From a virus: DNA of 64,000 bases. Shown in pieces: positions 1,674 to 27,851 of the stretch. Position numbers and translations under genes: made by a program. The DNA is taken from the IMG/VR virus record IMGVR_UViG_3300042260_000713, positions 1 to 64,000 of that record. One strand, written 5' to 3'. Position 1 is the stretch's first letter, and each line of letters starts with the position of its first letter. The notes under the pieces are model-generated. The model was given only the letters and a program-made list of their open reading frames with translations. It made no database searches and was not told the origin of the DNA.

Positions 1674-3278
1674 TCAGTAGCTCCTAGAGATGACACCGCG
1701 CGTCAAACGGCCGCGCAGGGCTGAGTCGAACGGCGGCCCGCCCAGCTGGCCGCTGCGGGCATCGATGGTGAGGCCACCAACGAACACCGCATTGCCGGCG
1801 TCGTCTTGGCCGCTGAACCGCACCCGGCCACCGTTTATCTGCCTGATTGATCGCTGGATCCGCCGGGCGGCACGCGCCGGCGGCACACGGTAGAACTCAA
1901 CGCCGCTCATCGGCGCCGTCCACTGATGGTTAATCGCTGTGATCAGGGAGCGCAGCTTGCGCCGCACCGGCTCCACTGGGGTTGGCGCGGGGCCCTGCCC
2001 CACCTCATACCAGTAGTTGTCCATGGTGGCCTTAAGCCGGGCCACCAGGGCCAGCACCATCGCGCCCGCGGCGGTGGTGAGCTGCCCGCCGGCGATCAGC
2101 TGGGCGGCCAGCCGATCCCAGCTCGCCTTGAAGGCGGCATGGAACGGGTAGGGGTAAACGCAGGTGCCATCGAAGCGGAACATGCCCTCGGCGAAGTTCT
2201 GCATCGGCCGCTGAAACCCATGCACCAGCGAGGCGCTGATGGCATCAAGGAACAGGCCCGCATCCTTGCGGGTGAGCTCTTCGTAATTGTCGGGCCAGTC
2301 GCAGGCGCACTCGATCGTGCCCAGGTAGGCCCATAGGTCGTTGATCAGGGCCGTGCGCGCCGCATTGATCACGGCGGCGGCATTCGCCTGGGTGGTGAGC
2401 GCCGATGCCGGCACCGTGAGCGGCTGGATCTGCTGGGTGCTGCCCTCGCTCCAGAAGCTGTAGTCGCCGAATTGGCTGCTGCTGCCGCTCACCACCATCT
2501 GCCCCCCTGAGAGGCAGACGAAGTGCTTGTGGGCGCCCACGCCGATGGCGTTGACGGGGTTGATGAAGCCCCGGTTCTTGGCCACGTAGCCCATGCCGTT
2601 GTGGCTGGAGGGCGTGAAGCCCCAGGTCATCAGGTTCGGAAACACTGAATAGGCGGAGAGCACCGCACCATCGGCCAACACGCAGCCGCCGCCCTTGGGC
2701 TGGGCAGGATTGCCGGCGGCAGCGTTCATCGGCAGCGGGGTGGGCACCTCCGTGAGGGCGGAAGTGACGACGCAGTTCTGCCCATATGGAACGCCACCCG
2801 GCAAGATCACGGCACCGGGGCGGAACACCATTGCAAACCCCTTGGTGGGGTTGCTGAAGCTGTCAATGCGCCAGCCGCTGAACTTCAGATTGACCAGGTG
2901 GCAGCCATTGCCGACCCTGAACACGTTGCGCACCTCATTGCCGGCCGAGGGGCTGACGATGGTGCGGCGCTGGAAATTGGCACCGATGATCGTCGTGCGA
3001 TCCGGCACGTCCAGCTCACCAGCTGTCGGCAGCAGGTCATCGAGGATCTTGATTGTCCAGGGCACGGGCTCGGCAAAGTCCGCCACCCGATCCAGCGCCT
3101 CCTCCACATGGCGCAGCCCCGTGCGGGCGGTGCGGCCATCGCTCTGGTTGGAGCCATCACTGCGGACGTAGAAGATCCTGGGCTCCTGGCTGTCGCCGGA
3201 TTCAGGCGGTGGGGTGACACCCGCCTGGATCAGGGTCTGAGTGATCTCCACCTGGGCAAGCACAGAGGAAAGGGTCAC
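1674..3278 (-). CDS. Tailspike/fibre-like protein, possible right-handed beta-helix
   Basis: 534-aa ORF with GTGA overlap to the upstream gene. N-terminal region ...FYVRSDGSNQSDGRTARTGLRHVEEALDRV...NVFRVGNGCHLVNLKFSGW... resembles pectate-lyase-type beta-helix tailspikes. Confidence 0.5.
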   Translation of the reverse strand: MTLSSVLAQVEITQTLIQAGVTPPPESGDSQEPRIFYVRSDGSNQSDGRTARTGLRHVEEALDRVADFAEPVPWTIKILDDLLPTAGELDVPDRTTIIGANFQRRTIVSPSAGNEVRNVFRVGNGCHLVNLKFSGWRIDSFSNPTKGFAMVFRPGAVILPGGVPYGQNCVVTSALTEVPTPLPMNAAAGNPAQPKGGGCVLADGAVLSAYSVFPNLMTWGFTPSSHNGMGYVAKNRGFINPVNAIGVGAHKHFVCLSGGQMVVSGSSSQFGDYSFWSEGSTQQIQPLTVPASALTTQANAAAVINAARTALINDLWAYLGTIECACDWPDNYEELTRKDAGLFLDAISASLVHGFQRPMQNFAEGMFRFDGTCVYPYPFHAAFKASWDRLAAQLIAGGQLTTAAGAMVLALVARLKATMDNYWYEVGQGPAPTPVEPVRRKLRSLITAINHQWTAPMSGVEFYRVPPARAARRIQRSIRQINGGRVRFSGQDDAGNAVFVGGLTIDARSGQLGGPPFDSALRGRLTRGVISRSY

Positions 3279-3628
3279 GACGGCACCCCCAGGCGCGTGA
3301 TCGTTTGCGTGCCGGCGAGAATCGGCAGCTTGCTGCCGGCCGCCAGCTGGGCCATCAGCTCGAAGTAGTAGGGCCCTGCGGGTAGCGGCAGGATCTGCGG
3401 CTCCACCCGCAGCTTGCCCTCCACCGCCGAAACGATGGTGATGCCACCGCCAACGCCGAGGGCCAGGCGTGCGGCCTTCTCCCCGACCCTTCGGTAGATC
3501 ATTTCAACGTCGGCGGCCTTGAGGTTGATCGGCCGGCCCGATTGCCGGTTGGTGAGGGTGATCAGGTTGATGCCCTCCCACGTTGCCCCCTCGTAGACCG
3601 CGGGCAGCGCAAATCCCGCTGGCGTCAC
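3275..3628 (-). CDS. Hypothetical protein
   Basis: 117-aa ORF with GTG start in a GTGA overlap with the upstream stop. Composition is plausible for a real protein. Confidence 0.5.
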   Translation of the reverse strand: MTPAGFALPAVYEGATWEGINLITLTNRQSGRPINLKAADVEMIYRRVGEKAARLALGVGGGITIVSAVEGKLRVEPQILPLPAGPYYFELMAQLAAGSKLPILAGTQTITRLGVPS

Positions 3629-3900
3629 GGCTGCTCTCCGTTGGTTGCCGGTGCAGCAGCAGCAGCAGGCGATTTCTTGCCGCGCGGCGCCGGCGCCTTG
3701 GCCAGCTCTTCGGTTTTGGCGGGGGCAGCAGCTTCAAAGGCTTGGGCAGCCGCCTTCAGGTGATCCACGGTTCCCGAGCGCAGCTGCTCTTGCAGCACCT
3801 CAAGCGCTAGGCTCATCGCCCAGACTGCTTCCCGCGGGCCCACACGCTCCAGGAAGGCCAGCAGCTGCTCGGCGGCATACAAACGGTCTGCAGTGGTCAT
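3625..3900 (-). CDS. Hypothetical protein with Ala/Pro/Lys-rich tail
   Basis: Internal ATG at 3900 (MTTADRLYAAEQLL...) of the 3625..4101 ORF. The upstream 67 codons look like non-coding read-through. Confidence 0.45.
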   Translation of the reverse strand: MTTADRLYAAEQLLAFLERVGPREAVWAMSLALEVLQEQLRSGTVDHLKAAAQAFEAAAPAKTEELAKAPAPRGKKSPAAAAAPATNGEQP

Positions 3901-3992
3901 TCCGTCGCTACGGATCGGCACCCACACCGTAGGAGCGTTGTCACTCCGATCTGACGCCAGAGCAGAACAGCTCCAGATCGCTTTCAGATCGC

Positions 3993-4358
3993 TCAGGGAT
4001 ACTGCGGGGCGACCAGGTGGACCGATCGATCCCGGTAGATCGTGTCGCGCACGATGGTAAACACCACCAGCCCCGTCACCAGGGCGACAGCGACGGCACA
4101 CAATGCGAGCACAGCCCGCTCATCGGAGCTGTTCTGGCGCCTGGTGGCTGCCCGGTCCTTCCGCTGGTGCTGATCTGGCTGGAGGTGGGTTGTCATCCGT
4201 TGCCCGCCGCTCAGGGGCTGCAGCAAGGGGGCGGGGCGGGTCTGGGGTAGCACGGGAGCGCGGCGCCGGGGAAACGATTCGGCCATTGCTGATTGGTGTT
4301 GTTGCTGGCTGGGTGCAATAGTACACAGATCCGAGAGATCCGCTACGATCTCGGACAT
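3993..4358 (-). CDS. Hypothetical membrane protein
   Basis: 121-aa ORF with one hydrophobic helix, AVLALCAVAVALVTGLVVFTIV. An alternative start at 4286 is possible. Confidence 0.4.
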   Translation of the reverse strand: MSEIVADLSDLCTIAPSQQQHQSAMAESFPRRRAPVLPQTRPAPLLQPLSGGQRMTTHLQPDQHQRKDRAATRRQNSSDERAVLALCAVAVALVTGLVVFTIVRDTIYRDRSVHLVAPQYP

Positions 4359-4386
4359 TCCCAGTCTGATCCGTACCTACCAAGCA

Positions 4387-4683
4387 ATGAGATTTCTTCA
4401 CGTTCTGGCCGCCGCAGCCGTTGGCGCCAGCGCTTGCCAGCCGCGGCCAGCCCAGGCCTACAGCCTGACCACGGCGGCTTGGGCTTCGGCAGCTTCGATC
4501 TGCCAGGTCATGGCCGCTGGCTTTTCGATGCCTGAGGCCGTTCGCATCGGCATCACCGACAACCTGATGCTGTGGTCAGCTGAAATGCAGCATCCGGCCT
4601 TTTCCCGGCTGATGGCCGCGGAGGTGGTGCGGCGATGCCCGGATCTGCTGCGCTCTGCTCCAGGCGGAGGGACGCAGCTGTGA
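4387..4683 (+). CDS. Small secreted protein or possible lipoprotein
   Basis: Begins MRFLHVLAAAAVGASAC..., which looks like a signal peptide and possible lipobox. Located in the integration module. Confidence 0.45.
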   Translation: MRFLHVLAAAAVGASACQPRPAQAYSLTTAAWASAASICQVMAAGFSMPEAVRIGITDNLMLWSAEMQHPAFSRLMAAEVVRRCPDLLRSAPGGGTQL

Positions 4684-4922
4684 TCCAGGGGAGGGCCTCA
4701 ACCGCAGCACGGCATCAGCCGCTGCTGCTGACGATCCCCCAGGCCGCTGCCGCCATGGGCTGCAGCGAGCGGCACATCAAGCGGCTGGTGGCCGAGGCCG
4801 ATGCCAACCGCCGTAGCCGCTGGCGGTGGGGCCGTGAGCTGCTCGACCTGGCGCCGGTGGGCTCAGCACGGCGAATGATTCGGATCAACGCCCAGGCGGT
4901 GGTGCCGGAGTTGAAGGCGTGA
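4680..4922 (+). CDS. Excisionase/AlpA-like HTH DNA-binding protein
   Basis: LLTIPQAAAAMGCSERHIKRLV is an excisionase-type HTH. GTG start in a GTGA overlap with the upstream stop. Adjacent to the integrase. Confidence 0.6.
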   Translation: MIQGRASTAARHQPLLLTIPQAAAAMGCSERHIKRLVAEADANRRSRWRWGRELLDLAPVGSARRMIRINAQAVVPELKA

Positions 4923-5152
4923 CTGAACGACTTCAGCCTGGCGACATCTGGCAGCACACCAGCATGGGGATGCTGTACGTGACCAGCGAAGACATAGACC
5001 TGCACCCTGGCTACTTGAAGTGCTACTGGCGGATGAGCGGCCAGAGTGGCCTGGCCACATTCATGGATCCTGCAAAGACCGAGCACCTCACCCTGATGCA
5101 GCGGCTGGGTGAACAAGGCCCGGATGGTGAGTGGCGGTTAAAGCCCACCTAA
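4919..5152 (+). CDS. Hypothetical protein
   Basis: 77-aa ORF with GTGA overlap to the previous gene. Converges on the integrase 3' end. Confidence 0.45.
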   Translation: MTERLQPGDIWQHTSMGMLYVTSEDIDLHPGYLKCYWRMSGQSGLATFMDPAKTEHLTLMQRLGEQGPDGEWRLKPT

Positions 5153-6139
5153 CGCCCGCTCTGCCGCCTCGGCCACGTGGTGGGGCTGGATGTGAGCCCG
5201 GTAGGTCTTCGAGTGCTGCTGCGGGGTGTGGCCCATCAGCCGGGCGGCGGTGTAAAGATCCAACCGACTGCCCCCCTCCCGCCACAGTCGGGCCGCGTAG
5301 GCATGCCGCAGTGCATAGGGCCGCCAGGGCAGACGTTGCCGCCGCAGTTCCTTGTGCAGCCACTTGCTCACCGCATCCGTCCGCTCGCTCTCGCGCAGCT
5401 GCGGCCGTAGCCGCTGTTCCCGCAAGCGGAAGCGCTCGACCCAGGCGCGGGGCAGGGGAACCACCGTGCGGAAGCCCGTTTTGGTGGCCTCTTGCACCTG
5501 GCAGTAATCGCGCTCGATCAACGCCGCCCCCTCGATCTCATGGGGCCGCAGACCATAGGTGGCCATCATTCCCCAGTACCACTGGACAGGTTCCGAGGCC
5601 CCCTCCACCCAGACAATGATCTCCTCATCGCTCGGCACCTCCACCAGGGCGGCCTGGCTGTAGGTGGGCACTGGCACCTCTGGGAACGGCACCGCCACCA
5701 GCCGCGCCAGGTGGCGCAGCAGATAGAAGAGCTCCTTGTAGGAGCAGCTGGCCCGGTCGTAGCGCGCGAGCGCCCGAGCCATGCTTTCTGTGGTGCAGGC
5801 CGACCCCGGCTCAATCTGCCGCAGCCGGCCCAGGTAGTTCACCTCCCAGGTGCTTTGCCCCGTGCGGCCGAGAATCACCCGGGCCCGATGCAGGCGGCTG
5901 ATCGCCTCGCGCCAGGAGATCGCCCCTGGCTCCTGATCCAGCCAGTAGTCCCAGGAGAAGGTGCCGCCCTCGAGCTGCCGCTCCAGGGTCTGCAGCTGCT
6001 TTGCTGCCATCCGGCGGTTGACCGGGGTGTCATCCAGCCTGAGGGCAATGCGGCTCTGGGCCAGGCCAGGCCGGCCGTCGCGGCGGGGCACCCGTGCGAG
6101 CAGGTAGAGCCGACCCCTTAGGGCATTGATCGAGGCCAC
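5138..6139 (-). CDS. int: Tyrosine recombinase (phage integrase family)
   Basis: C-terminal ...RPYALRHAYAARLWREGGSRLDLYTAARLMGHTPQQHSKTYRAH fits the R...HxxR...Y catalytic pattern. GTG start. Confidence 0.85.
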   Translation of the reverse strand: MASINALRGRLYLLARVPRRDGRPGLAQSRIALRLDDTPVNRRMAAKQLQTLERQLEGGTFSWDYWLDQEPGAISWREAISRLHRARVILGRTGQSTWEVNYLGRLRQIEPGSACTTESMARALARYDRASCSYKELFYLLRHLARLVAVPFPEVPVPTYSQAALVEVPSDEEIIVWVEGASEPVQWYWGMMATYGLRPHEIEGAALIERDYCQVQEATKTGFRTVVPLPRAWVERFRLREQRLRPQLRESERTDAVSKWLHKELRRQRLPWRPYALRHAYAARLWREGGSRLDLYTAARLMGHTPQQHSKTYRAHIQPHHVAEAAERALGGL

Positions 6140-6485
6140 GGCGAATACGACGTTGACGGGACGGGCGGTTGTGGCCGATGAACGGCCCGTCCATTCCTAC
6201 TGCATTTCCAGTCCCTTGCTGTCCCTTGCTGTCACCTCCGGCGTTTCGGCCCCATTGCTGAGATCCGTTGCAGCGCAAGCATCTTGCGCTCTGCGACAGG
6301 CCAGCACAGCCAGGTAGAGATCCTCATCAATGCTGCGGATGTCGTATCGCCAGCCCAGACACCGCAAGGAGTTTCAGCGGTGGTTCATCACCGGTCCATC
6401 GGTTTGTGGTAGGGTCTGCTCATCGGAAGCGCCGGGCAAGGCCCGCCACCGATCACCCCATCGCCCGGCACTGGCCGGAGAAACC
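6140..6485. other. Non-coding region next to int; candidate attP/regulatory region
   Basis: No convincing ORF. Contains an 8-bp-stem hairpin (ggacgggc...gcccgtcc, about 6161-6194), a tandem tcccttgctg x2 (about 6211-6232) and the hairpin gcgcaag-catc-cttgcgc. No tRNA fragment was recognised. Confidence 0.2.
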
Positions 6486-6866
6486 ATGGAAACCACTCGC
6501 ACCACTATCGCTGGCACCGCAGGCCGCATTGCCGGCACCACCGCCCGGGGCCTGCTCTGGCTGAACGAGCAGATCGATTGGCCTGAGGTCGGCCAGATCG
6601 TGCTCCAAGGCCTGCAGATCCTGATCGTGCTCACCCTGCTGGCCGGGCGTTACAGCCGCCGCGCCTGGGATCACCTGCCGGTGCTCAGCGCGCAGCTGGG
6701 CAGCTGGTATGCCGGCCTGCTGGTGCCGGAGCAGCACCTGCTGGCACCGATCACGGCCATAATGGCCGCGGCCCGGGAAGCGCTGGAGCGGCTTGTGCGG
6801 CGCCTCTACCCCGTGCTGGCCTTTCACACCTCCAGCCCCGCCACCTCGGCGACCATGGCGTCGTAG
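6486..6866 (+). CDS. Hypothetical membrane protein
   Basis: ATG at 6486 (METTRTTIAG...). Contains the hydrophobic segment GQIVLQGLQILIVLTLLAG. The 3' end overlaps the convergent Mu F-like gene. Confidence 0.45.
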   Translation: METTRTTIAGTAGRIAGTTARGLLWLNEQIDWPEVGQIVLQGLQILIVLTLLAGRYSRRAWDHLPVLSAQLGSWYAGLLVPEQHLLAPITAIMAAAREALERLVRRLYPVLAFHTSSPATSATMAS

Positions 6867-9031
6867 GCGTCGCGGGCGGCGGCATTGATCCAGCCCCTGG
6901 AGGGGGTCCACACCGGATCCCCCGATGGCCAGGGCCTGGCGCCACCGTTTGCCGGGTTGTTGGCCTGGTTCGGCCGGGGGGTGGTGGCCGGCAGGGCCGT
7001 GCGCTCCATCAGCGGGAAGTCGCTGGGCCCGCGGGGCTCACCGGTGCCACCGATCGGCCGCCAGGGCCTGCTGCTGGCCTCGTCGTACTTCTGCCGTGTC
7101 GCCGCGGCCAGGGCCTGCTGCTGCTCCTCCCAGCGCTCGCCGCGGCCGCTGGCCAGCTCGTTCTGAATGACCAGGGCCTCCAGGGTGATGGGAGACAGGG
7201 CACAGCGGCAGTTGTGGGTCAGAATCCCATTGGCGACATACATGCCTGAGAACGTCGTCAGGTCGTACACAAAACCGTCGTGCCACGCAGGATCAACCTT
7301 GATGTCCAGGATCTCGTCAGCCGCTACGAGGCCGGGGCAAGCCCCAACCAGCTGGCCAAGCATTTCCACATCACCCGCCGAACCGTTCATCGCCGGTTGC
7401 TCAAAGCGGGGGTCCCGCCACGCAATGCCAGCAAGGCGAACCAGCTCCGATGGGTTCAGATGACCCCCGAGCAGCGCGCTGCGCAGGTCGCCGCGGCCCA
7501 TGAGGCCTCCAAGGGCCGCGTGGAACGTGAGGAGAGCAAGGTCCAGCGCGCTCAGACCCGCTTTCAGCGGTCGCTGGGCATCAGCGGGTACGAGAGGCAG
7601 ATTGCCGAGCTGCTGCAGGCCGCCGGCCACGAGGTGGTTCATCAGCTCCCGGTCGGCCCATACAACATCGATCTGGCCCTGCCCGGCTGCTCCATCGCCG
7701 TGGAAGTGAACGGGGGCCACTGGCACGCCTACGGCCGGCATCTTGCTCGCCGCAACCGTCGCCTGAAACAGATCCTCGATGAGGGCTGGAGCTGTTGCGA
7801 GGTCTGGGTTGGCCATGACGGACTGGACCCCGGGGGCCTGGGCGAGCACCTGGTCGCCACGATTGAGCGCATGCGCAGCAACCCAGCCTCGGGTTGTCGC
7901 CACGAGATGATGACGGGTACAGGCGAGGCGACGGCCCGCCTTCGTTCGTATGGTCACGACGTCGCCCCGATAGATCATGCGAGTCGCCGCGATCAGGTGA
8001 CCGGGCAGTACCTCCGTGCCGGGTAGCACGCAGTTCGGGTGGATCGGGGTCTTCACGCTGCCGGCGTAGTAGAGGGCCCCCATCCGGGGCGCGCAGAACT
8101 CGCAGACCCGATCGTCGGCTGTGGCCACGTATCGCACGAAGCCGGCCCCCACCCGGCGGAAGGTGCGCTCGCGGGCCTCGCCGGCGGCGATGTGGGTTTC
8201 GGTGCGGGCGACGGTCTCGGCGCGGCCGCGAAAGGCGTCGTTGATGTGGGGTAGGCGCTGCTTGAGGGTGCGGGCCAGCTGGCGGCTGTCCACGCCGGTA
8301 GCCAGCTGGGTGGCGGTCTCAAACTGCACCGTGTCGCCCCAGTCGCGCCACCAGCGAAAGAAGTAGTCCTTCGAAGCGCGCACCCGCTCATCGGTTGCGG
8401 CGTTGCGCTGGCGGCGGTAGTTGGCGCTGAGGCTCTTGAAGTCGCGCTCGGCTGCGGCGATGGTGGCGCCCATGTTCAGGAGCCTGGTGAAGCTCTGGCC
8501 CTCCTGGTAGGGGCTCCCGGGGGCCGGCGCATCGGTGGGGCCTGGAGGCCCGGCAGGCGGCAGCTGGGGGTCCTGCAGGGCTGGGTGGCGGCCGGAGAGC
8601 ACGGCGGCCGGGGGGAGCATGTTGCGCGAGAGCTCGATGGCGTACTCGGTGCCGAGGTCCTGGGCGCGGTTGTAGAGCTCCGTGAGCTCACGGTTCAGGG
8701 CTGCGTTGGCGGCCCGGTCGGCCGGGAAGCGGTTGATGATCGCCTGCAGGTCCTGAACCAGCTGGCCCTGCAGGTAGAGGCTGGCCTGGTTCTTCTGCAG
8801 GGGGGTGATGGGCACGGGGCCATCGGGGGTGGATCCCAGGAAGGCGCCGGGGGTGGTGGCCGGGTCGTACTGGGGCTGGGCCTCGATCCGCTCCAGCCGA
8901 TCGGTGAGGCTGCGGATGGTGCGGCGCAGCGCCTCATCGAAGATCCCGCGCAGCTTGCGCAGCTGCCGATCCTCCAGGCCCCGCAGCTGCTGATCCAGCT
9001 CCTCGAGCAGCTCCAGGGACCGGTCAGCCAT
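6824..9031 (-). CDS. Head morphogenesis protein (Mu F / SPP1 gp7 family) interrupted by an intein
   Basis: ...GRAETVARTETHIAAGEARERT...RYVATADDRVCEFCAPRMG...TPIHPN[intein]CRCALSP. With the insert removed, the family hallmark HPNCRC is restored. Lies downstream of the portal. Confidence 0.8.
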   Translation of the reverse strand: MADRSLELLEELDQQLRGLEDRQLRKLRGIFDEALRRTIRSLTDRLERIEAQPQYDPATTPGAFLGSTPDGPVPITPLQKNQASLYLQGQLVQDLQAIINRFPADRAANAALNRELTELYNRAQDLGTEYAIELSRNMLPPAAVLSGRHPALQDPQLPPAGPPGPTDAPAPGSPYQEGQSFTRLLNMGATIAAAERDFKSLSANYRRQRNAATDERVRASKDYFFRWWRDWGDTVQFETATQLATGVDSRQLARTLKQRLPHINDAFRGRAETVARTETHIAAGEARERTFRRVGAGFVRYVATADDRVCEFCAPRMGALYYAGSVKTPIHPNCVLPGTEVLPGHLIAATRMIYRGDVVTIRTKAGRRLACTRHHLVATTRGWVAAHALNRGDQVLAQAPGVQSVMANPDLATAPALIEDLFQATVAASKMPAVGVPVAPVHFHGDGAAGQGQIDVVWADRELMNHLVAGGLQQLGNLPLVPADAQRPLKAGLSALDLALLTFHAALGGLMGRGDLRSALLGGHLNPSELVRLAGIAWRDPRFEQPAMNGSAGDVEMLGQLVGACPGLVAADEILDIKVDPAWHDGFVYDLTTFSGMYVANGILTHNCRCALSPITLEALVIQNELASGRGERWEEQQQALAAATRQKYDEASSRPWRPIGGTGEPRGPSDFPLMERTALPATTPRPNQANNPANGGARPWPSGDPVWTPSRGWINAAARDAYDAMVAEVAGLEV
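7211..8032 (-). mobile_element. Intein (274 aa) within the Mu F-like gene
   Basis: Starts with Cys1 (CVLPGTEVL). Block B-like LACTRHHLVATTRGWVAAHALNRGDQVL. C-terminal FVYDLTTFSGMYVANGILTHN followed by the +1 Cys of CRC. Confidence 0.8.
7280..8026 (+). CDS. HTH + Vsr/DUF559-like PD-(D/E)XK endonuclease (putative homing endonuclease), antisense and nested inside the intein
   Basis: 248-aa ORF. N-terminal HTH is VSRYEAGASPNQLAKHFHITRRTVHRRLLKAGV. The core is PYNIDLALPGCSIAVEVNGGHWH...RRLKQILDEGWSCCEVW, similar to the motif YRADFAWPAAQVAVEINGGLW in the 27276 gene. Third-codon positions are strongly G/C. Confidence 0.6.
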   Translation: MPRRINLDVQDLVSRYEAGASPNQLAKHFHITRRTVHRRLLKAGVPPRNASKANQLRWVQMTPEQRAAQVAAAHEASKGRVEREESKVQRAQTRFQRSLGISGYERQIAELLQAAGHEVVHQLPVGPYNIDLALPGCSIAVEVNGGHWHAYGRHLARRNRRLKQILDEGWSCCEVWVGHDGLDPGGLGEHLVATIERMRSNPASGCRHEMMTGTGEATARLRSYGHDVAPIDHASRRDQVTGQYLRAG

Positions 9032-9224
9032 TCAGGGGGGTGCAGCGCGCCCGCAGAGCATCGACCCGGGCCTGCAGTCTGTCGGTGCTTGTCTGCAGAG
9101 GTTTGCCAGTGAGCTCGCGCAGGTGTTCGTCCTGCAGCCGGTAGAAGGCTTCCAGGTCGCCACGGCCTCGGGCCTCATTCATGGCCACAAGCAGCTGGAA
9201 ACGGCGAGGGAATGGTTGCTTCAT
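9024..9224 (-). CDS. Small hypothetical protein ending in the RxDALxxxC helix motif
   Basis: 66-aa ORF with ATGA overlap to the upstream stop. The C-terminus ...DRLQARVDALRARCTPLNG resembles the helix that precedes the cysteine modules. Confidence 0.45.
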   Translation of the reverse strand: MKQPFPRRFQLLVAMNEARGRGDLEAFYRLQDEHLRELTGKPLQTSTDRLQARVDALRARCTPLNG

Positions 9225-11578
9225 GGCCGGCCCCCAAAACGACGATCGAGCTCGCGCCGCATCCGATCAAGATCACTCTGGCCGAAGATGGCATCGCGCG
9301 CTGCCGCGGCCCGGGCCAGCACTTCCGGCGTGAGCGGCGGCTCCAGGCCCACCCGGGGATCCCGCAGGGCCATGTCGTAGGGCATGCCCTCCTCTCTCTT
9401 AATCCTGTTGGCTTCCACAATCCGGCGGCGGAACTCACCCGGCTCAAACTTCACGCCCACCTGGTCTTCGTTGGTCTCCTCCCACGCGAGGTCGTGGGCT
9501 GAGATCACGCGCTTGAAGGCCAGCTCTGCATCCCTTGCCCTCTCGCGTGCAGTGGCGACGATTTCAGAGAGGCCCTTCGCCGCTGCTGGCAGCCGCTGCG
9601 CCTGGCCAGCAAGGCTGAGCAGGGGGATGAGGGCATAGCCCTCGTCGCTGGCCTTCATTGCTGCACTGCGGGTGCCCTCATTCCATGGGTTGGGGGATTC
9701 TCGAACCTGCCCCCAGTCGATCAAGGCCGGTGTGCCATCCGGGCCCACCAGGATGTTGCCGCCGTGCAGGTCCCCGTGGATCAGGCCGGAGTCGGCCTGC
9801 CGGCGGGCCAGCTGCAGCGCACCCGCCACGTACCTGGCCGCGGCCTTCGGGTCCGAGAGGGTTGCCGCCGCTTCTGGGGTCAGGTCCACCGTCTGGTGGG
9901 ACGGGGTGAGCTTCGAGCCGCGCAGCATGCGGTATGCGAGGCTCCAACGGCCATCGGGCAGGTGGACAACATCTCCGATCGGCTTGGGGCCCAGGCCGAC
10001 CGCATGGGCCCGCTGCAGGTTGCGCAGCTCACGTCGGGCCACGTTCTCTCGCTGCTCGGCCAGGCCCACCCGCGGATCATCCTCTGCGGGGTCACCCATG
10101 GTGAGGCTGTTGACCTTCACCACCACAGGGCCATCGGCGGTGTCGAACTGGTAGGTCTTGCCAAACGCCCCACTGCCCAGGCTGCGCACCGGCGGCTGCC
10201 CGCGGAATCGGGGCTCTCCGCCGTCAGCCTCGAGCGTGATCTCGCCCTTGCCGGCGGCAGCGGTGGCTGCATTTCGGGCCTTCCGCTCTGCTGCCTCCCG
10301 AACCTTGCGGGCCTGGGTTTCCTGATGCAGCTGCATCAAGCGGTTCGGCGTGGCCGCGGGTTGCACCGCAGCAGCCCCTTTGCGGCAGGTGTCGCGGGGA
10401 TCGATCCAGCCCGCACCGCAGGGTTCGCCACCTCCCGGGCCGCGGCCGCCGCTTGCACCGCCCCCGGTCAAGTCCAGCGCCATCTGGCCGGGAGCCTCTT
10501 GTCGGCGACGGGCATCAAAGCGCTGTTTCAGGGCGTCGATGCGGACCTGGAGGCTGTCCAGAGTGGTGCGATCTCCGCCGCCAAACTCAGGCAGCTGCAT
10601 TGCTGCTTCGATGAACAGGCGCTCGTCGTCATCTAATTCGCTATCCATACGCCGGCGTTTTGCGATCTTGCCTCCCTTCACAAGGGCAATCCCGTCATGC
10701 CTCTGGCCAACCGGGAATTGAAAACCTAGTGCCTCGTACATTTTCTTCCGCTCTTCACCATATCCATCACCTCCATAGGCGCTGCAGGTGAGCAGTGAAC
10801 CATCAGGCATCCCCTTCAACATCTCGGCCATCTGTCGAAACACTGCGCGAGCCACCAGGGCCCCATCAGCGGGGGAGATGTCAATTCTTTTCAGGCCAGT
10901 CATAACTTCACTGGTGCCAGTGAAGAAATTCAGATCGGTGGCCACGATTTTTGGCACACCGGGGGCGTCTTCGTCGCCTGGGACCACCAGCGGATTTACC
11001 CCTACTTCCTTGCCCAGCTCAGCAGCTCGACGGTGGATGCTGGTTGACCAGACATAACTGGCATCAGGATCTCGGAGTCTGACGTTGGTGATTTGCCCGA
11101 ACACCCCGGCGTGAATCGTTCTGGTCTCAGTGTTGCCGCCGCTGATCTCAACGGTGAATTCGCGCTGAAGCTGGTCTTTTCGCGGGCGACCGCTCCCACT
11201 ACGCGGTGGGTCCGTTGACTTGATGCTGATTTTTGCCTTTCTGCGGTCAGCTGCCTCAGCGGCAGTGGCGGCGATAGTTTGCCGGGCGGTCTTGCGCCGG
11301 TTCAGAAGCTCTTGAGCCTTGCTGCCGCGGGCGCTGCGCAACTCCTGGGCCATCTCGCCGGCCTCGCCGGCCTTGACCGTGCCGATGCCCCGCTGGTTGG
11401 AGGGACCTCCGGCCGCCAGGGCCATGAGCCGCTTCAGGCGCTCCTTGCCGATTGCCGATCCCGGCCTGGTGCGGCATTCCTTCCGCAGGCTGATGCACGT
11501 GGATCCGCAGCCGTAGCCGGTGCTGCACTTGCGCTTCAGGGCATCGATCCGTTCCTGCAGGCTCTCAGCCCGGTTCAT
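9221..11578 (-). CDS. Multidomain virion-module protein: N-terminal Cys4 module, DGYG/GF domain, protein-kinase-like domain
   Basis: ATGA overlap with the portal stop. Begins MNRAESLQERIDALKRKCSTGYGCGSTCISLRKECR. Kinase motifs are GSGAFGKTY...VVVKV...HGDLHGGNILV...LIDWG (about 9695-10192). Confidence 0.7.
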   Translation of the reverse strand: MNRAESLQERIDALKRKCSTGYGCGSTCISLRKECRTRPGSAIGKERLKRLMALAAGGPSNQRGIGTVKAGEAGEMAQELRSARGSKAQELLNRRKTARQTIAATAAEAADRRKAKISIKSTDPPRSGSGRPRKDQLQREFTVEISGGNTETRTIHAGVFGQITNVRLRDPDASYVWSTSIHRRAAELGKEVGVNPLVVPGDEDAPGVPKIVATDLNFFTGTSEVMTGLKRIDISPADGALVARAVFRQMAEMLKGMPDGSLLTCSAYGGDGYGEERKKMYEALGFQFPVGQRHDGIALVKGGKIAKRRRMDSELDDDERLFIEAAMQLPEFGGGDRTTLDSLQVRIDALKQRFDARRRQEAPGQMALDLTGGGASGGRGPGGGEPCGAGWIDPRDTCRKGAAAVQPAATPNRLMQLHQETQARKVREAAERKARNAATAAAGKGEITLEADGGEPRFRGQPPVRSLGSGAFGKTYQFDTADGPVVVKVNSLTMGDPAEDDPRVGLAEQRENVARRELRNLQRAHAVGLGPKPIGDVVHLPDGRWSLAYRMLRGSKLTPSHQTVDLTPEAAATLSDPKAAARYVAGALQLARRQADSGLIHGDLHGGNILVGPDGTPALIDWGQVRESPNPWNEGTRSAAMKASDEGYALIPLLSLAGQAQRLPAAAKGLSEIVATARERARDAELAFKRVISAHDLAWEETNEDQVGVKFEPGEFRRRIVEANRIKREEGMPYDMALRDPRVGLEPPLTPEVLARAAAARDAIFGQSDLDRMRRELDRRFGGRP
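11405..11563 (-). repeat. Cys4-module repeat, copy 1
   Basis: Encodes SLQERIDALKRKCSTGYGCGSTCISLRKECRTRPGSAIGKERLKRLMALAAGG. DNA is similar to 53149-53307, 60082-60240, 62107-62268 and 63478-63612. Confidence 0.85.
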
Positions 11579-13569
11579 GCCTCTGCCCCATCTGCAGGAA
11601 GGTAGGCATCGCACAGGGCGCCCATCGCCACCAGGTCGACGGCGTCGATCCGGCGGATGGTGGGGGTGGGGCCAACGGCATCGCGCACGCCCCGCAGGTG
11701 CTGGTGGCCCAGGGCCAGCAGGTAGGCGCCGCTGGATGCCTCGAACACCTCCCAGGCGCCGCTCAGATCCGGTCCCACCGCCACGGGATAGGGGAGGGTC
11801 TGTCCGTAGGGGCCCTGCAGGCGGCCGATGCCCGGGCCATCCATCCGCACGCTCACCCCGAGGATCTGATGGATCTGGCCGGCGGCATCGTTGCGGGGCT
11901 GCTCATCCCGGCGGCGGCGGCGGCGCGCGCGGTGCTCGGTGATCTGCTCGGCCAGGGCCTGGGCCCGCTCCTCGCAGGCGTCACAGCAGGGCTCGTCGTC
12001 GGCATCGGTGCGGGGCGGGGTCTCAGGCGGTGCGGTGCCCTCCAGGCCCTCCAGCCCGGCATCACCGCCGGCGGCCGGAGCCTCCCCGGTGGCCTGGGCC
12101 TCCCCGGGGGCCGCGGCCGGATCGCCCCCGAGGGTGCCGCCGAACTCCACCGGGGCAGGCTGCTCCGGCTGCGGGATCGAACCATCGGCCTCGCGGTTCA
12201 GCAGGGTGGTGTCGAGGGAGAACCGAGGCTTCCCGAACCGCGCCAGCGCCACCTCGTTGGGCTGCAGCACACCGCCGGTGATGTACTGGCTGTCGGCCGC
12301 GGCCACCTTCTGCCGCAGCTCCGCCTGTTCATCATCCGTTGGGGTGTAGGTGGGCCGGAAGGTGATCTCCCAGTCTTGCGGCGGGGCCTTGCCCTTCCAG
12401 GGGCCATCGGAGCAGGCCATCACCAGCTCGTAGATGCGCCGGAGGGGTTCCTTCAGGTGCTGGGCCTGCCAGTCAGCCACCTCGTTGCCGAAGGCCGCCT
12501 GCTCGCTGCGGCCATCGGCGCCCAGGCCCGAGGGGCTCTCACCCCACAGCAGGGTGTGAGGGAGGCCAGAGGCGCCGGTGATCTCCGATTTCAGGCTGGC
12601 GAGGATGTCGGCGATGCCGGCGGCGGAGCGGGTGAAGTGGGTCAGCTCCTCGTTGTCGTTCAGCAGGTAGGCGCCGATGGTGGAGCGGGCCAGGGCGTTG
12701 GCCTGCAGGCGCTGGCGCAGCTTGTCCTCTCCGCCGGCGGCGAGCATGTTGGAGAGGCCTGGGAGCTTGTGCACCACCAGGTCGAAGTCGTGGAGAATGT
12801 CGGCGGCGCTCTGCTGGCCGGTTTCGTAGCGCTTGAACACGTCCCAGACCAGATCCACCACCGACACGCCCCACCACTGCCGCTCCTGCTGGGAACGCCA
12901 GCTGCAGGGCAGACCCTCGATGCGGATCACCCGGCTGCTGTGGATCTCGATCTGGGTGGCATCGGTGAGGCCCAGGCCGGCGCTGGTGACCTGCTTGGCG
13001 CCGGCCTCCGTTTCGAGCTTCTGGAGGTCGCGATCGGCCTGGGTCCAGAACCAGTACCGCTCCGGTTCACCGATGCCCGACCAGCCGGCAGCGGGGTAGA
13101 GGCGCCAGCGATCGATTGGGTAGAGGCCGTGGATGGTGCGCAGCCGCTTGAGGTTCAGCGGCTGATCGATGGGCGTTCGGTCGTCGGCGATCACGATGAT
13201 CGCGCCGCCGCCGTAGAGGCGGCTGTAGGTGGCGGCCTGGGCCAGGGCCTGGCGAAGGTGCAGCTTCTCCGTCCAGCCCACCACGTCGTCGAGCTGCTTC
13301 TTCATGCGGCTGGAGGTTTCATCCCCCACGCTCAAATCCCAGCCGCTGCGGGTGCCCTGCTGGGGCAGCTTCTCGACGATGCGGCGGATCAGCCAGCTCT
13401 GTTCGTAGAGGGCATCGATTGCGGCCTCAGAGAGGATGCGTGATCGCTTGACGCCGATCGCTTCGTTTCGGTCCTTGGCGGTGCCCAGGCCGGTGAGCAC
13501 GTTGATCAGCGCACCATCAAGGCGATACCCGGCGCCGGGGTCATTCGACTGCAGGAAACCGATCGCCAC
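11575..13569 (-). CDS. Portal protein (DUF1073-like)
   Basis: 664 aa. N-terminus ...LDGALINVLTGLGTAKDRNEAIG...ALYEQSWLIRRIVEKLP is typical of this portal family. Lies next to the terminase and head genes. Confidence 0.75.
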   Translation of the reverse strand: MAIGFLQSNDPGAGYRLDGALINVLTGLGTAKDRNEAIGVKRSRILSEAAIDALYEQSWLIRRIVEKLPQQGTRSGWDLSVGDETSSRMKKQLDDVVGWTEKLHLRQALAQAATYSRLYGGGAIIVIADDRTPIDQPLNLKRLRTIHGLYPIDRWRLYPAAGWSGIGEPERYWFWTQADRDLQKLETEAGAKQVTSAGLGLTDATQIEIHSSRVIRIEGLPCSWRSQQERQWWGVSVVDLVWDVFKRYETGQQSAADILHDFDLVVHKLPGLSNMLAAGGEDKLRQRLQANALARSTIGAYLLNDNEELTHFTRSAAGIADILASLKSEITGASGLPHTLLWGESPSGLGADGRSEQAAFGNEVADWQAQHLKEPLRRIYELVMACSDGPWKGKAPPQDWEITFRPTYTPTDDEQAELRQKVAAADSQYITGGVLQPNEVALARFGKPRFSLDTTLLNREADGSIPQPEQPAPVEFGGTLGGDPAAAPGEAQATGEAPAAGGDAGLEGLEGTAPPETPPRTDADDEPCCDACEERAQALAEQITEHRARRRRRRDEQPRNDAAGQIHQILGVSVRMDGPGIGRLQGPYGQTLPYPVAVGPDLSGAWEVFEASSGAYLLALGHQHLRGVRDAVGPTPTIRRIDAVDLVAMGALCDAYLPADGAEA

Positions 13570-26947: not shown

Positions 26948-27415
26948 ATGTTTGAGCAGCACACACCCCCCTCCATCCCCATCACGGGCTTTGCTCTCTA
27001 TCCCGACCGACTGCTGTTGCAGGGAGGCAACTCTTCACGGTGCTCCTTCTCGCAACCCGATCAGCTCAGCCCAGAAGCCTACAAGCAGTTTCTCTGGCTG
27101 CTGGAGGATGCGCTCGGCGCCAATCGCAACGACCTGGCGTTGACCGATCCGACATCCATCCGTTCTCTGCTGAGGGTGATCACTCTTTGCCATGCCACCC
27201 GCCCGGTTGATCGGTTCACCGGAGCAGTTCTGGCGCTGGGGATCAAGCCCTTGTCCCCACCACCCCCTGTGATCCATGCCCAGTCATCTGGAGGAGGCCT
27301 TCGCGAATCAGTGGCTGGTCTCGTTCCCCCAACTGCCGTTCATCCGCGAGCACACGTTGCCGGCGTGGATGATCTGGGCCTGCTACCAGAAGCAGGAAGC
27401 GCTCAGGTCGCGTAA
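26948..27415 (+). CDS. Hypothetical protein
   Basis: 155-aa ORF. The last 46 or so codons overlap the next gene in another frame and look low-complexity. Confidence 0.45.
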   Translation: MFEQHTPPSIPITGFALYPDRLLLQGGNSSRCSFSQPDQLSPEAYKQFLWLLEDALGANRNDLALTDPTSIRSLLRVITLCHATRPVDRFTGAVLALGIKPLSPPPPVIHAQSSGGGLRESVAGLVPPTAVHPRAHVAGVDDLGLLPEAGSAQVA

Positions 27416-27851
27416 GCCACCGGCCTACCGCGCCGATTTCGCCTGGCCTGCTGCCCAGGTGGCCGTGGAGATCAACGGCGGCCTGTGGCGCCCAGGCGGC
27501 CATTCCACCGGCAGCGGCATCACGCGCGACATCACCAAAACCACCCTCGCCCAGCTGTCCGGCTGGGTGCTCATCCCCCTTTCCGATGCTCACATCTTCG
27601 ATGGCAGCCCCTTCTGGCTCCAGCTCATCGCCGATCTCATCATCCATCGCAGAGATCTTCTACTCAGCCGAAACACCCCAGGTGCTCCAGCTGGGGGGAG
27701 TGAGCCTGCACCCTGCGGGCCACTGCCTGATGCCCTGGATGATTCACAACTCCGAGCTCCATCCGAGCCTGCAAGCCGGCGCCGTCGCCGGGATGGAGCA
27801 CAACGGGATCGAGTGGATCTCCGTGCAGCACTCGGGCAACTACGGCAGTAG
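27276..27851 (+). CDS. PD-(D/E)XK (Vsr/DUF559-like) endonuclease
   Basis: YRADFAWPAAQVAVEINGGLWRPGGHSTGSGITRDITKTTLAQLSGWVLIPL. The tail after about aa 130 overlaps the next ORF. Confidence 0.6.
   Translation: MPSHLEEAFANQWLVSFPQLPFIREHTLPAWMIWACYQKQEALRSRKPPAYRADFAWPAAQVAVEINGGLWRPGGHSTGSGITRDITKTTLAQLSGWVLIPLSDAHIFDGSPFWLQLIADLIIHRRDLLLSRNTPGAPAGGSEPAPCGPLPDALDDSQLRAPSEPASRRRRRDGAQRDRVDLRAALGQLRQ

Follow-up and report, generated by a model that had tools for sequence, protein, structure and literature searches.

An intein in a Mu F-type phage head gene with a putative homing endonuclease encoded on its opposite strand

In a 64,000-nucleotide (nt) stretch of viral DNA, positions 1 to 64,000 of the IMG/VR record IMGVR_UViG_3300042260_000713 (hereafter the window), a head morphogenesis gene of the SPP1 gp7/Mu F type is interrupted by a contiguous intein, and a 248-amino-acid (aa) open reading frame (ORF) is nested inside that intein on the opposite strand (Table 1). 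We read this locus, with a probability of about 0.8, as a mobile intein of non-canonical architecture whose homing endonuclease is encoded antisense to the splicing domain. Observed here are the anatomy of the element, the homology of its products, a selection pattern that switches strand along its length, a sporadic distribution among related genes and an incongruence between intein and extein.

The host gene and the splicing domain are both recognizable. The 735-aa minus-strand product matches PF04233 Phage_Mu_F (E 3e-7, 31.6 bits against a cut-off of 29.6) and TIGR01641 for SPP1 gp7 (E 3.4e-7). Its translation contains the residues of a class 1 intein, with C334 as Cys1 (CVLPG...), a C-terminal ...THN and C608 as the +1 residue; the TxxH of block B can be read from the sequence as T39-R-H-H42. 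The intein_Cterm model TIGR01443 scores 25.4 bits, over its cut-off of 15.6, and PF14890 Intein_splicing (E 2.8e-5) and TIGR01445 (E 0.13) both fall under theirs. In an AlphaFold 2 (AF2) model, the two halves of the splicing (HINT) domain reach a predicted local distance difference test score (pLDDT) of 68-88 at precursor residues 331-400 and 68-86 at residues 571-600. Removing the intein gives an uninterrupted host protein with a predicted spliced length of 461 aa, the same as that of the intein-less allele P0155. Intact motifs, together with purifying selection on the two splicing halves, suggest that the intein is capable of protein splicing.

On the other strand, the nested ORF starts 69 nt inside the 3′ boundary of the intein and reaches to within 6 nt of the 5′ boundary. 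Its stop codon, TAG, lies opposite the intein Leu3 codon CTA as its complement, and the in-frame stop that precedes the ORF, TGA at 7247-7249, is the complement of the intein Ser262 codon TCA. The two frames are codon-aligned, with plus position 3 facing minus position 1 and the second positions facing each other, as the mirrored substitution counts reflect. With frames in this register, openness of both strands would require only the avoidance of TTA, CTA and TCA on either strand, and each of these three codons could be replaced by a synonymous one. The plus-frame family motif QYRVIRG is the codon-wise complement of the intein block B sequence TPNHPILT, and the nested ORF of one relative (L016) ends at about aa 207, ahead of the QYRVIRG segment; because of these two observations, the last roughly 60 residues of the 248-aa product are most likely forced read-through that ends where a Leu or Ser codon of the intein first gives a stop. 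In the AF2 model, aa 220-248 have a pLDDT below 50, and this C-terminal tail is probably dispensable.

Profile searches support placing the nested ORF in the broad Vsr/DUF559/MTES_1575 superfamily of PD-(D/E)XK-like nucleases, as judged from sequence and predicted fold. Its product matches PF18741 REase_MTES_1575 (E 1.5e-8), the helix-turn-helix (HTH) models HTH_7 (E 4.9e-4) and HTH_23 (E 1.4e-3) and, weakly, the NCBIfam DUF559 model (E 0.013) and the nuclease region of the anti-phage protein ProA (E 1.7e-5). Matches strengthen across the family: 35 of 44 aligned members (E ≤ 0.01) match PF18741, at best with E 6e-11, 11 of the 44 match DUF559, and members reach E 1e-10 for HTH_7 and E 2e-8 for HTH_58. 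The close relatives P0001-P0003 carry PF18741 as a precomputed annotation, and relatives of the nested protein at 88-94% identity have been called as genes. In a 50% representative library, a profile built from the window ORF and four relatives has 7169 matching clusters at E ≤ 1e-3, 946 of them at E ≤ 1e-30.

Structural comparisons point the same way. Against sequences in the PDB, the family profile matches 3hrl, a DUF559-like structure (E 4e-6), and 3r3p, the homing endonuclease I-Bth0305I (E 3.4e-5). The top Foldseek matches of the AF2 model of the nested product in the PDB are the Vsr structures 1vsr and 1cw0 (probability 1.00, E 3e-3 to 4e-3, TM score on the target 0.49-0.53), and its HTH region, aa 11-50, has a pLDDT of 82-91. 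In the alignment of the 44 sequences (A2), Y128, D131 and E142 are invariant and H149 is nearly so. D131 is aligned with Asp196 of I-Bth0305I, a catalytic residue studied by mutation and the equivalent of Asp51 in Vsr, and the E-x-N-G...W-H stretch also aligns with that enzyme. These profile, PDB and fold matches bear out the proposal, in an initial annotation made from sequence alone, of an HTH plus Vsr/DUF559-type nuclease antisense to a contiguous Mu F intein; the ORFs, boundary offsets and stop-codon complement described there also hold.

In DNA of this composition an open antisense frame proves nothing by itself. The window is 68% GC, GC content at third codon positions (GC3) is 0.91 in the extein, and TTA, CTA and TCA together make up 0.45% of the codons in the window's genes. 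Local codon usage gives a probability of about 0.37 that the antisense frame lacks stops, and when stretches of 248 codons are taken from genes of the window, the codon-aligned antisense frame is free of stops in 34% of them. The window's real genes often have long shadow ORFs (200-580 aa) on their antisense strand, such as 11698-13443 (+) opposite the portal gene at 11575-13569 (-). The initial annotation had proposed that a GC3-rich endonuclease gene keeps the intein frame open automatically, which stands for the window and fails as a general cause, as both frames are open in relatives at 50-52% GC too. From the codon usage of the genome of Salmonella phage PK2 (50% GC), 6.4 antisense stops would be expected in the nested ORF and 9.2 in the intein segment that faces it; neither has any (P = 7e-4 and 4e-5 for the two directions). 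Because low-GC relatives stay open against expectation, selection, not composition, keeps both frames open across the family.

The strand on which selection acts can be followed along the element. We calculated ratios of non-synonymous to synonymous polymorphism (pN/pS) in both frames from five copies, namely the window, L001, L002, L015 (from an uncultured Cyanobium metagenome-assembled genome, MAG) and L016. The minus frame has pN/pS values of 0.23-0.38 in the N-terminal splicing partition (7820-8032) and of 0.16-0.37 in the C-terminal splicing half, against 0.66-0.98 and 0.53-0.68, respectively, for the plus frame. The order is reversed in the nuclease-core partition (7580-7819), at 0.17-0.31 for plus and 0.73-1.10 for minus. 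The two frames are about equal in the HTH region, and the minus frame of the C-extein gives 0.18. The direction is the same in every comparison, and raw substitution counts by codon position over the whole overlap carry no information, since position 1 mirrors position 3. As these substitution patterns indicate, purifying selection shifts strand along the element, acting on the plus strand in the nuclease core and on the minus strand in the splicing blocks. Taken with the profile, PDB and fold matches, the 7169 related clusters and the open frames in relatives at 50% GC, this makes the plus-strand ORF a real gene and not a high-GC shadow.

The middle of the intein frame behaves in the opposite manner. 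Between 7325 and 7840 it has no match in Pfam or PHROGs, and at precursor residues 401-567 the AF2 pLDDT is mostly below 50. When the window is aligned to L004, a relative at 34% identity, the plus frame has 6 gap positions and the minus frame of the whole intein 68; outside the intein ends, all that is discernible in the intein frame are FHGDG and IDVV, the few conserved motifs of the linker, and these mirror the opposite-strand nuclease motifs YNID...AVE.GG.WH. The intein-frame middle is filler, a shadow translation as the initial annotation had suggested, and it exists because the opposite strand encodes the putative homing endonuclease codon for codon.

Several comparisons suggest that the element moves. 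A search with the spliced 461-aa extein gave intein-less alleles of 461-466 aa that are 87-94% identical to it and have the exact HPNCRC junction. One of them, P0155 (461 aa, 94% identical), shows it by reading ...KTPIHPNCRCALSPI... / ...IHPNCRCALSPI..., which defines the insertion exactly at HPN/CRC; the DNA of the intein-less relative L019 reads ...CCGATTCATCCGAAC / TGCCGTTGCGCGCTA... at the junction. Intein-containing alleles of 735 aa occur beside intein-less ones at 90-95% extein identity. In the group at 50-58% identity, most alleles are without an intein and seven have one. The protein P0175, at L016, combines an extein 55% identical to that of the window with an intein 81% identical; the inteins of other distant alleles are 46-55% identical. 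Sporadic distribution and intein/extein incongruence are what homing predicts, and on these sequence comparisons the element looks mobile.

The antisense layout is also widespread. A nuclease ORF is open opposite an intact intein frame in a Mu F-type gene at every translated related place except L005, 17 places in all; these are listed as L001-L004, L006-L013 and L015-L018, L016 and L017 share the protein P0175, and identity to the window goes down to 29-37%. For the phage records L020 and L021 the match was confirmed, by its position alone, on the strand opposite the minor head gene. A tblastn search of 50,697 phage records matched 118, including 62 from Salmonella, 15 from Gordonia and 15 from Pseudomonas phages, with further hosts among Escherichia, Vibrio, Acinetobacter, Haemophilus/Aggregatibacter, Rhodococcus, Cronobacter and others. 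Nearly all named features under the matches are head morphogenesis, Mu F or minor capsid/head proteins; the exceptions, 'structural protein' and 'NAD+--asparagine ADP-ribosyltransferase', fall at one 735-nt Jerseyvirus place, and the remaining features are unnamed or unannotated. In all four phage records that were opened, the match lies on the strand opposite the head gene. Altogether, records of at least 15 phage groups have this nuclease family antisense in Mu F-type inteins. The layout looks like a stable, widespread design and not a transient intermediate.

These observations suggest the following mechanism. The sense strand would encode just the two HINT halves, joined by about 170 unstructured filler residues. 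Translation of the precursor would run on across the filler, and splicing would then remove the entire intein and leave the 461-aa head protein; a separate antisense transcript would be translated into the nuclease. The nuclease may then cut intein-less alleles near the HPN/CRC coding site in co-infecting or resident relatives, with repair of the cut copying the intein in.

Some points weigh against this reading. The window protein scores 35.1 bits with PF18741, just below the curated cut-off of 38.2, and the AF2 models are of modest quality, with mean pLDDT values of 65 (nested product) and 52. The final Asp of the EDxHD motif (Asp222 of I-Bth0305I) lies opposite R158, at a position without acidic conservation in alignment A2. 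The pN/pS values come from small counts in five close sequences, whose pairs are not independent, and from overlapping frames, which confound such ratios; the single-pair Fisher test gives P = 0.07. The nested start codon is GTG, whereas relatives have ATG. The window has no Shine-Dalgarno (SD) sequence at normal spacing, the nearest AGG being 18 nt upstream, and a scan of 6700-8400 found no sigma-70-like promoter. We infer antisense transcription and translation of the plus-strand ORF from sequence, and we assume the cleavage target near HPN/CRC.

The weak expression signals could belong to a decaying, unexpressed relic of an old invasion, held open by high GC and by the selected intein frame within an intein inherited vertically. 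Such a relic would suit the GTG start, the lack of an SD sequence and promoter-like site and the 34-37% expectation of an open frame from composition, and the searched text of a preprint on related inteins (Gosselin, Arsenault and Gogarten, bioRxiv 10.1101/2025.01.02.630785) describes some Vsr-like groups that look vertically inherited. We nevertheless regard this explanation as unlikely: in the nuclease core it is the plus frame that is constrained (0.17-0.31 against 0.73-1.10), D131, E142 and H149 are intact, and recent movement is argued by an 81% identical intein in a 55% identical extein together with intein-less alleles at 94%.

A nested protein that is expressed and serves another purpose, as an HTH regulator, a conflict nuclease or a free-standing selfish endonuclease with another target, appears still less probable. 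The weak ProA match would fit a role in conflict, and the window contains a second, distant and free-standing relative at 27276. Against this, the annotated genes under the 118 phage-record matches are head genes, or the few other-named products at the one Jerseyvirus place, the nuclease and the intein transfer together, and I-Bth0305I, the closest solved homing enzyme, cuts beside its own insertion site (PMC3239194).

Finally, the idea that the plus-strand ORF is a mere high-GC shadow, the real domain being an undescribed in-frame endonuclease or linker in the intein middle, can draw on the long antisense ORFs common in the window (as opposite the portal gene) and on the conservation of FHGDG and IDVV in the minus frame, yet it is effectively refuted and has a negligible chance of being right, as profile, PDB-sequence and fold matches exist for the plus frame only, the minus-frame motifs are exact complements of the nuclease motifs, gaps number 6 in the plus frame and 68 in the intein frame, the centre has low AF2 confidence, and low-GC relatives keep the plus frame open.

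The translation start of the nested gene is conserved in its placement. In 13 of 13 loci examined, all codon-aligned, the nested ATG or GTG start codon lies opposite the block-F His codon (HVYNL or HVYDL). The start is the complement of the His in HVYNL in nine more distant loci, and most distant relatives have SD-like motifs (GGAGG, GAGG, GAAGG or AAGG) a few nt upstream, opposite the N/D-L-Q codons and formed by their complement. In the clade of the window, three extra codons (H-D-G-F-VYDL) move the start. A His codon CAT in L001 and L002 yields ATG, CAC in the window yields GTG, and L015 and L016 read Met there. A terminator scan of 6700-8400 found none. A plus-strand ORF at 6483..6866 (GC3 0.87) is convergent with the Mu F gene, overlaps its 3′ end and has no terminator-like site after it; read-through from it could be the source of an antisense transcript, although this is inference only.

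From these regularities we tentatively propose, at slightly less than even odds, that the arrangement is an old, co-adapted sense/antisense module at the HPN/CRC site of Mu F-type genes, in which the ribosome-binding site and start of the endonuclease are written into the complement of block F (..HVYNLQ..), and not the product of an accidental backwards invasion. Part of this proposal is that the module has spread across phages of Actinobacteria, Proteobacteria and Cyanobacteria. Were it true, synonymous intein codons would tune endonuclease expression (His CAT or CAC giving ATG or GTG, Leu CTC giving GAG), and antisense transcription could also modulate the late head gene.

Individual relatives show variations of the layout. 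L006 (IMG/VR UViG_3300033075_000826, 2716-5643, minus strand) is one Mu F-like gene with two inteins, each with an antisense Vsr-type gene: the first intein (DERV/C...HN/CPIC) carries a zinc-ribbon plus DUF559 ORF (47.5 bits against a cut-off of 20.6) and the second (HPR/C...KN/CRC) an HTH plus MTES_1575-type ORF, the antisense ORFs lying at 4027-4842 (+) and 2863-3699 (+). In L005 (ENA ERZ781240 NODE_1514, 4896-5658), one frame break at the nuclease core interrupts the nested ORF (159 aa) along with the intein frame; the contig has a coverage of 2.7x, and the break is either an assembly error or the mark of a decaying copy. In phage PK2 (L014, PV446483.1, 20917-21726), the nested ORF is annotated as 'hypothetical protein' with an N-terminal extension, MCYNSICK..., and its likely start is MPAKISF, with GAGG ahead of it. 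Its membership in the family rests on tblastn (E 1e-14) and shared motifs, and it has no Pfam match at E ≤ 0.001. PK2 has further antisense 'hypothetical proteins', annotated within its polymerase and primase/helicase genes; these lack family matches and were not accepted as additional nested endonucleases.

Within the window, a free-standing 191-aa ORF at 27276-27851 (+) with the core YRADFAWPAAQVAVEINGGLW matches phrog_503 (E 2e-14) and has no Pfam match. The initial annotation had seen in it the same core motif as in the nested ORF, and this agrees with an hhalign probability of 81% over 46 columns against the nested-endonuclease profile and with the phrog_503 match that the two share. The ORF probably encodes a distant PD-(D/E)XK-type nuclease that is free-standing in the same element.

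Table 1. Features of the intein-containing head gene and of the antisense gene nested in it (positions in the window)
Feature	Position	Strand	Description
Head morphogenesis precursor gene (SPP1 gp7/Mu F-type, minor capsid)	6824..9031	-	735 aa including the intein; from the ORF listing
N-extein	8033..9031	-	aa 1-333, end ...KTPIHPN
Intein	7211..8032	-	274 aa, precursor aa 334-607, CVLPG...THN, class-1-like, at HPN/CRC
N-terminal splicing (HINT) half	7838..8032	-	about aa 1-65, blocks A and B
Shadow linker of the intein frame	7325..7837	-	about 170 aa; translated within the precursor (predicted); no family match
C-terminal splicing half	7211..7324	-	aa 237-274, blocks F and G, ...GFVYDLTTFSGMYVANGILTHN
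C-extein and stop codon	6824..7210	-	CRCALSPITLE...
Nested antisense gene, putative homing endonuclease (HTH plus Vsr/DUF559/MTES_1575-type nuclease)	7280..8026	+	248 aa, GTG start
Start codon GTG	7280..7282	+	complement of the intein His codon CAC beside block F
HTH DNA-binding module	7283..7408	+	aa 2-43
Nuclease core	7589..7810	+	aa 104-177, YNID...AVEVNGGHWH; PF18741 stretch
C-terminal tail of the nested ORF	7838..8026	+	aa 187-248, opposite intein blocks B and A

The surroundings are those of a phage head module. The portal gene (11575..13569; Phage_portal_3, E 4.7e-65) lies upstream of the Mu F gene, and a tyrosine integrase gene (5138..6139, minus strand) adjoins the module. In a profile scan of genome contigs, the sole match in the genome collection, 94% identical, was L015, the uncultured Cyanobium MAG; a blastn search of the phage collection with the gene gave no match, which indicates that it has no close sequenced phage. 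Given the portal, Mu F and integrase genes and the match to the Cyanobium MAG, the locus belongs to the head module of a picocyanobacterial phage or prophage. The gene that separates the portal gene from the Mu F gene encodes a 797-aa protein with a kinase-like domain (9221-11614, minus strand; APH E 5e-11, RIO1 E 3e-6), and in its place the intein-less relative L019 has a 922-aa LPD1-domain protein. L019, a close relative, also has a serine recombinase (Resolvase, 4925-6241) near the place of the window's tyrosine integrase, which suggests different integration modules on related elements.

The locus is a natural case of about 750 nt serving two proteins on opposite strands, with selection passing from strand to strand. 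It supports a view of homing endonucleases as independent genes that come to join splicing elements, it indicates that about 170 residues of arbitrary sequence can be tolerated at the linker position of an intein, and it marks a mobile element in the head module of a Cyanobium-associated phage or prophage. In annotation, the nested gene is either overlooked by pipelines or, on short contigs, called while the intein goes unnoticed; most named public phage records label the head gene only.

Endonucleases encoded antisense to inteins have precedents. Antisense LAGLIDADG endonucleases in inteins were described by Gorbalenya (1998) and Gogarten et al. (2002), as cited in bioRxiv 10.1101/2025.01.02.630785; as far as that account goes, they represent the same topological solution in a contiguous intein, with a different nuclease fold. 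The searched text of the same preprint describes antisense Vsr-like homing endonucleases in full inteins of actinobacteriophages and lists minor capsid proteins among four host protein types with non-canonical endonucleases. The initial annotation, which knew of no contiguous intein with its endonuclease on the opposite strand, is superseded on this point, and the window copy belongs to a recently described kind, not a new one. Like the antisense-endonuclease inteins of the preprint, it has a putative endonuclease ORF antisense between the splicing blocks with the intein frame uninterrupted. As far as the preprint's searched text describes them, the actinobacteriophage inteins share with the window a full intein, an antisense Vsr-like endonuclease between the splicing blocks, a minor capsid (SPP1 gp7/Mu F) host, an in-frame middle without recognizable structure and a sporadic distribution. 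The Gordonia phages Vivi2, Fosterous and Affeca have tblastn relatives of the window protein at 33-35% identity, under the MuF-like minor capsid gene; Gordonia phages with such direct relatives are part of the database that the preprint drew on.

Unlike those actinobacteriophage inteins, the window copy sits in a Cyanobium-associated phage element, and relatives found here extend to phages of the Salmonella Jerseyvirus group and of Pseudomonas, Vibrio, Acinetobacter, Cronobacter and Haemophilus. A start codon or SD sequence overprinted on block F is not mentioned in the searched text of the preprint. What we add to that text is the cyanobacterial host, the breadth that includes Jerseyvirus, the low-GC statistics, the strand-switching selection and the start and SD signals on block F.

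Comparison with fractured genes and with intron-borne enzymes places the element further. As in fractured genes (Dassa et al. 2009, PMC2677866), a Vsr-related endonuclease occupies, as its own gene, the endonuclease position of an intein. In fractured genes, however, the host gene and the intein are split in two and trans-splice, whereas the intein frame in the window is continuous and is predicted to give one cis-splicing precursor. The initial annotation had considered the window copy an intermediate towards fractured or split inteins, an idea that fits poorly because the layout is conserved across phages of three bacterial phyla; the start, too, is conserved on block F. I-Bth0305I (Taylor et al. 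2011, PMC3239194; 3R3P) resembles the window protein in joining an N-terminal DNA-binding region to a C-terminal Vsr-like nuclease, and differs in sitting in a group I intron. It has NUMOD motifs (PMC3239194), whereas the window protein has a resolvase-type HTH and finds its best Pfam families in MTES_1575 and DUF559. The final Asp of its EDxHD motif corresponds to Arg158 in the window protein, and the other positions of the motif align.

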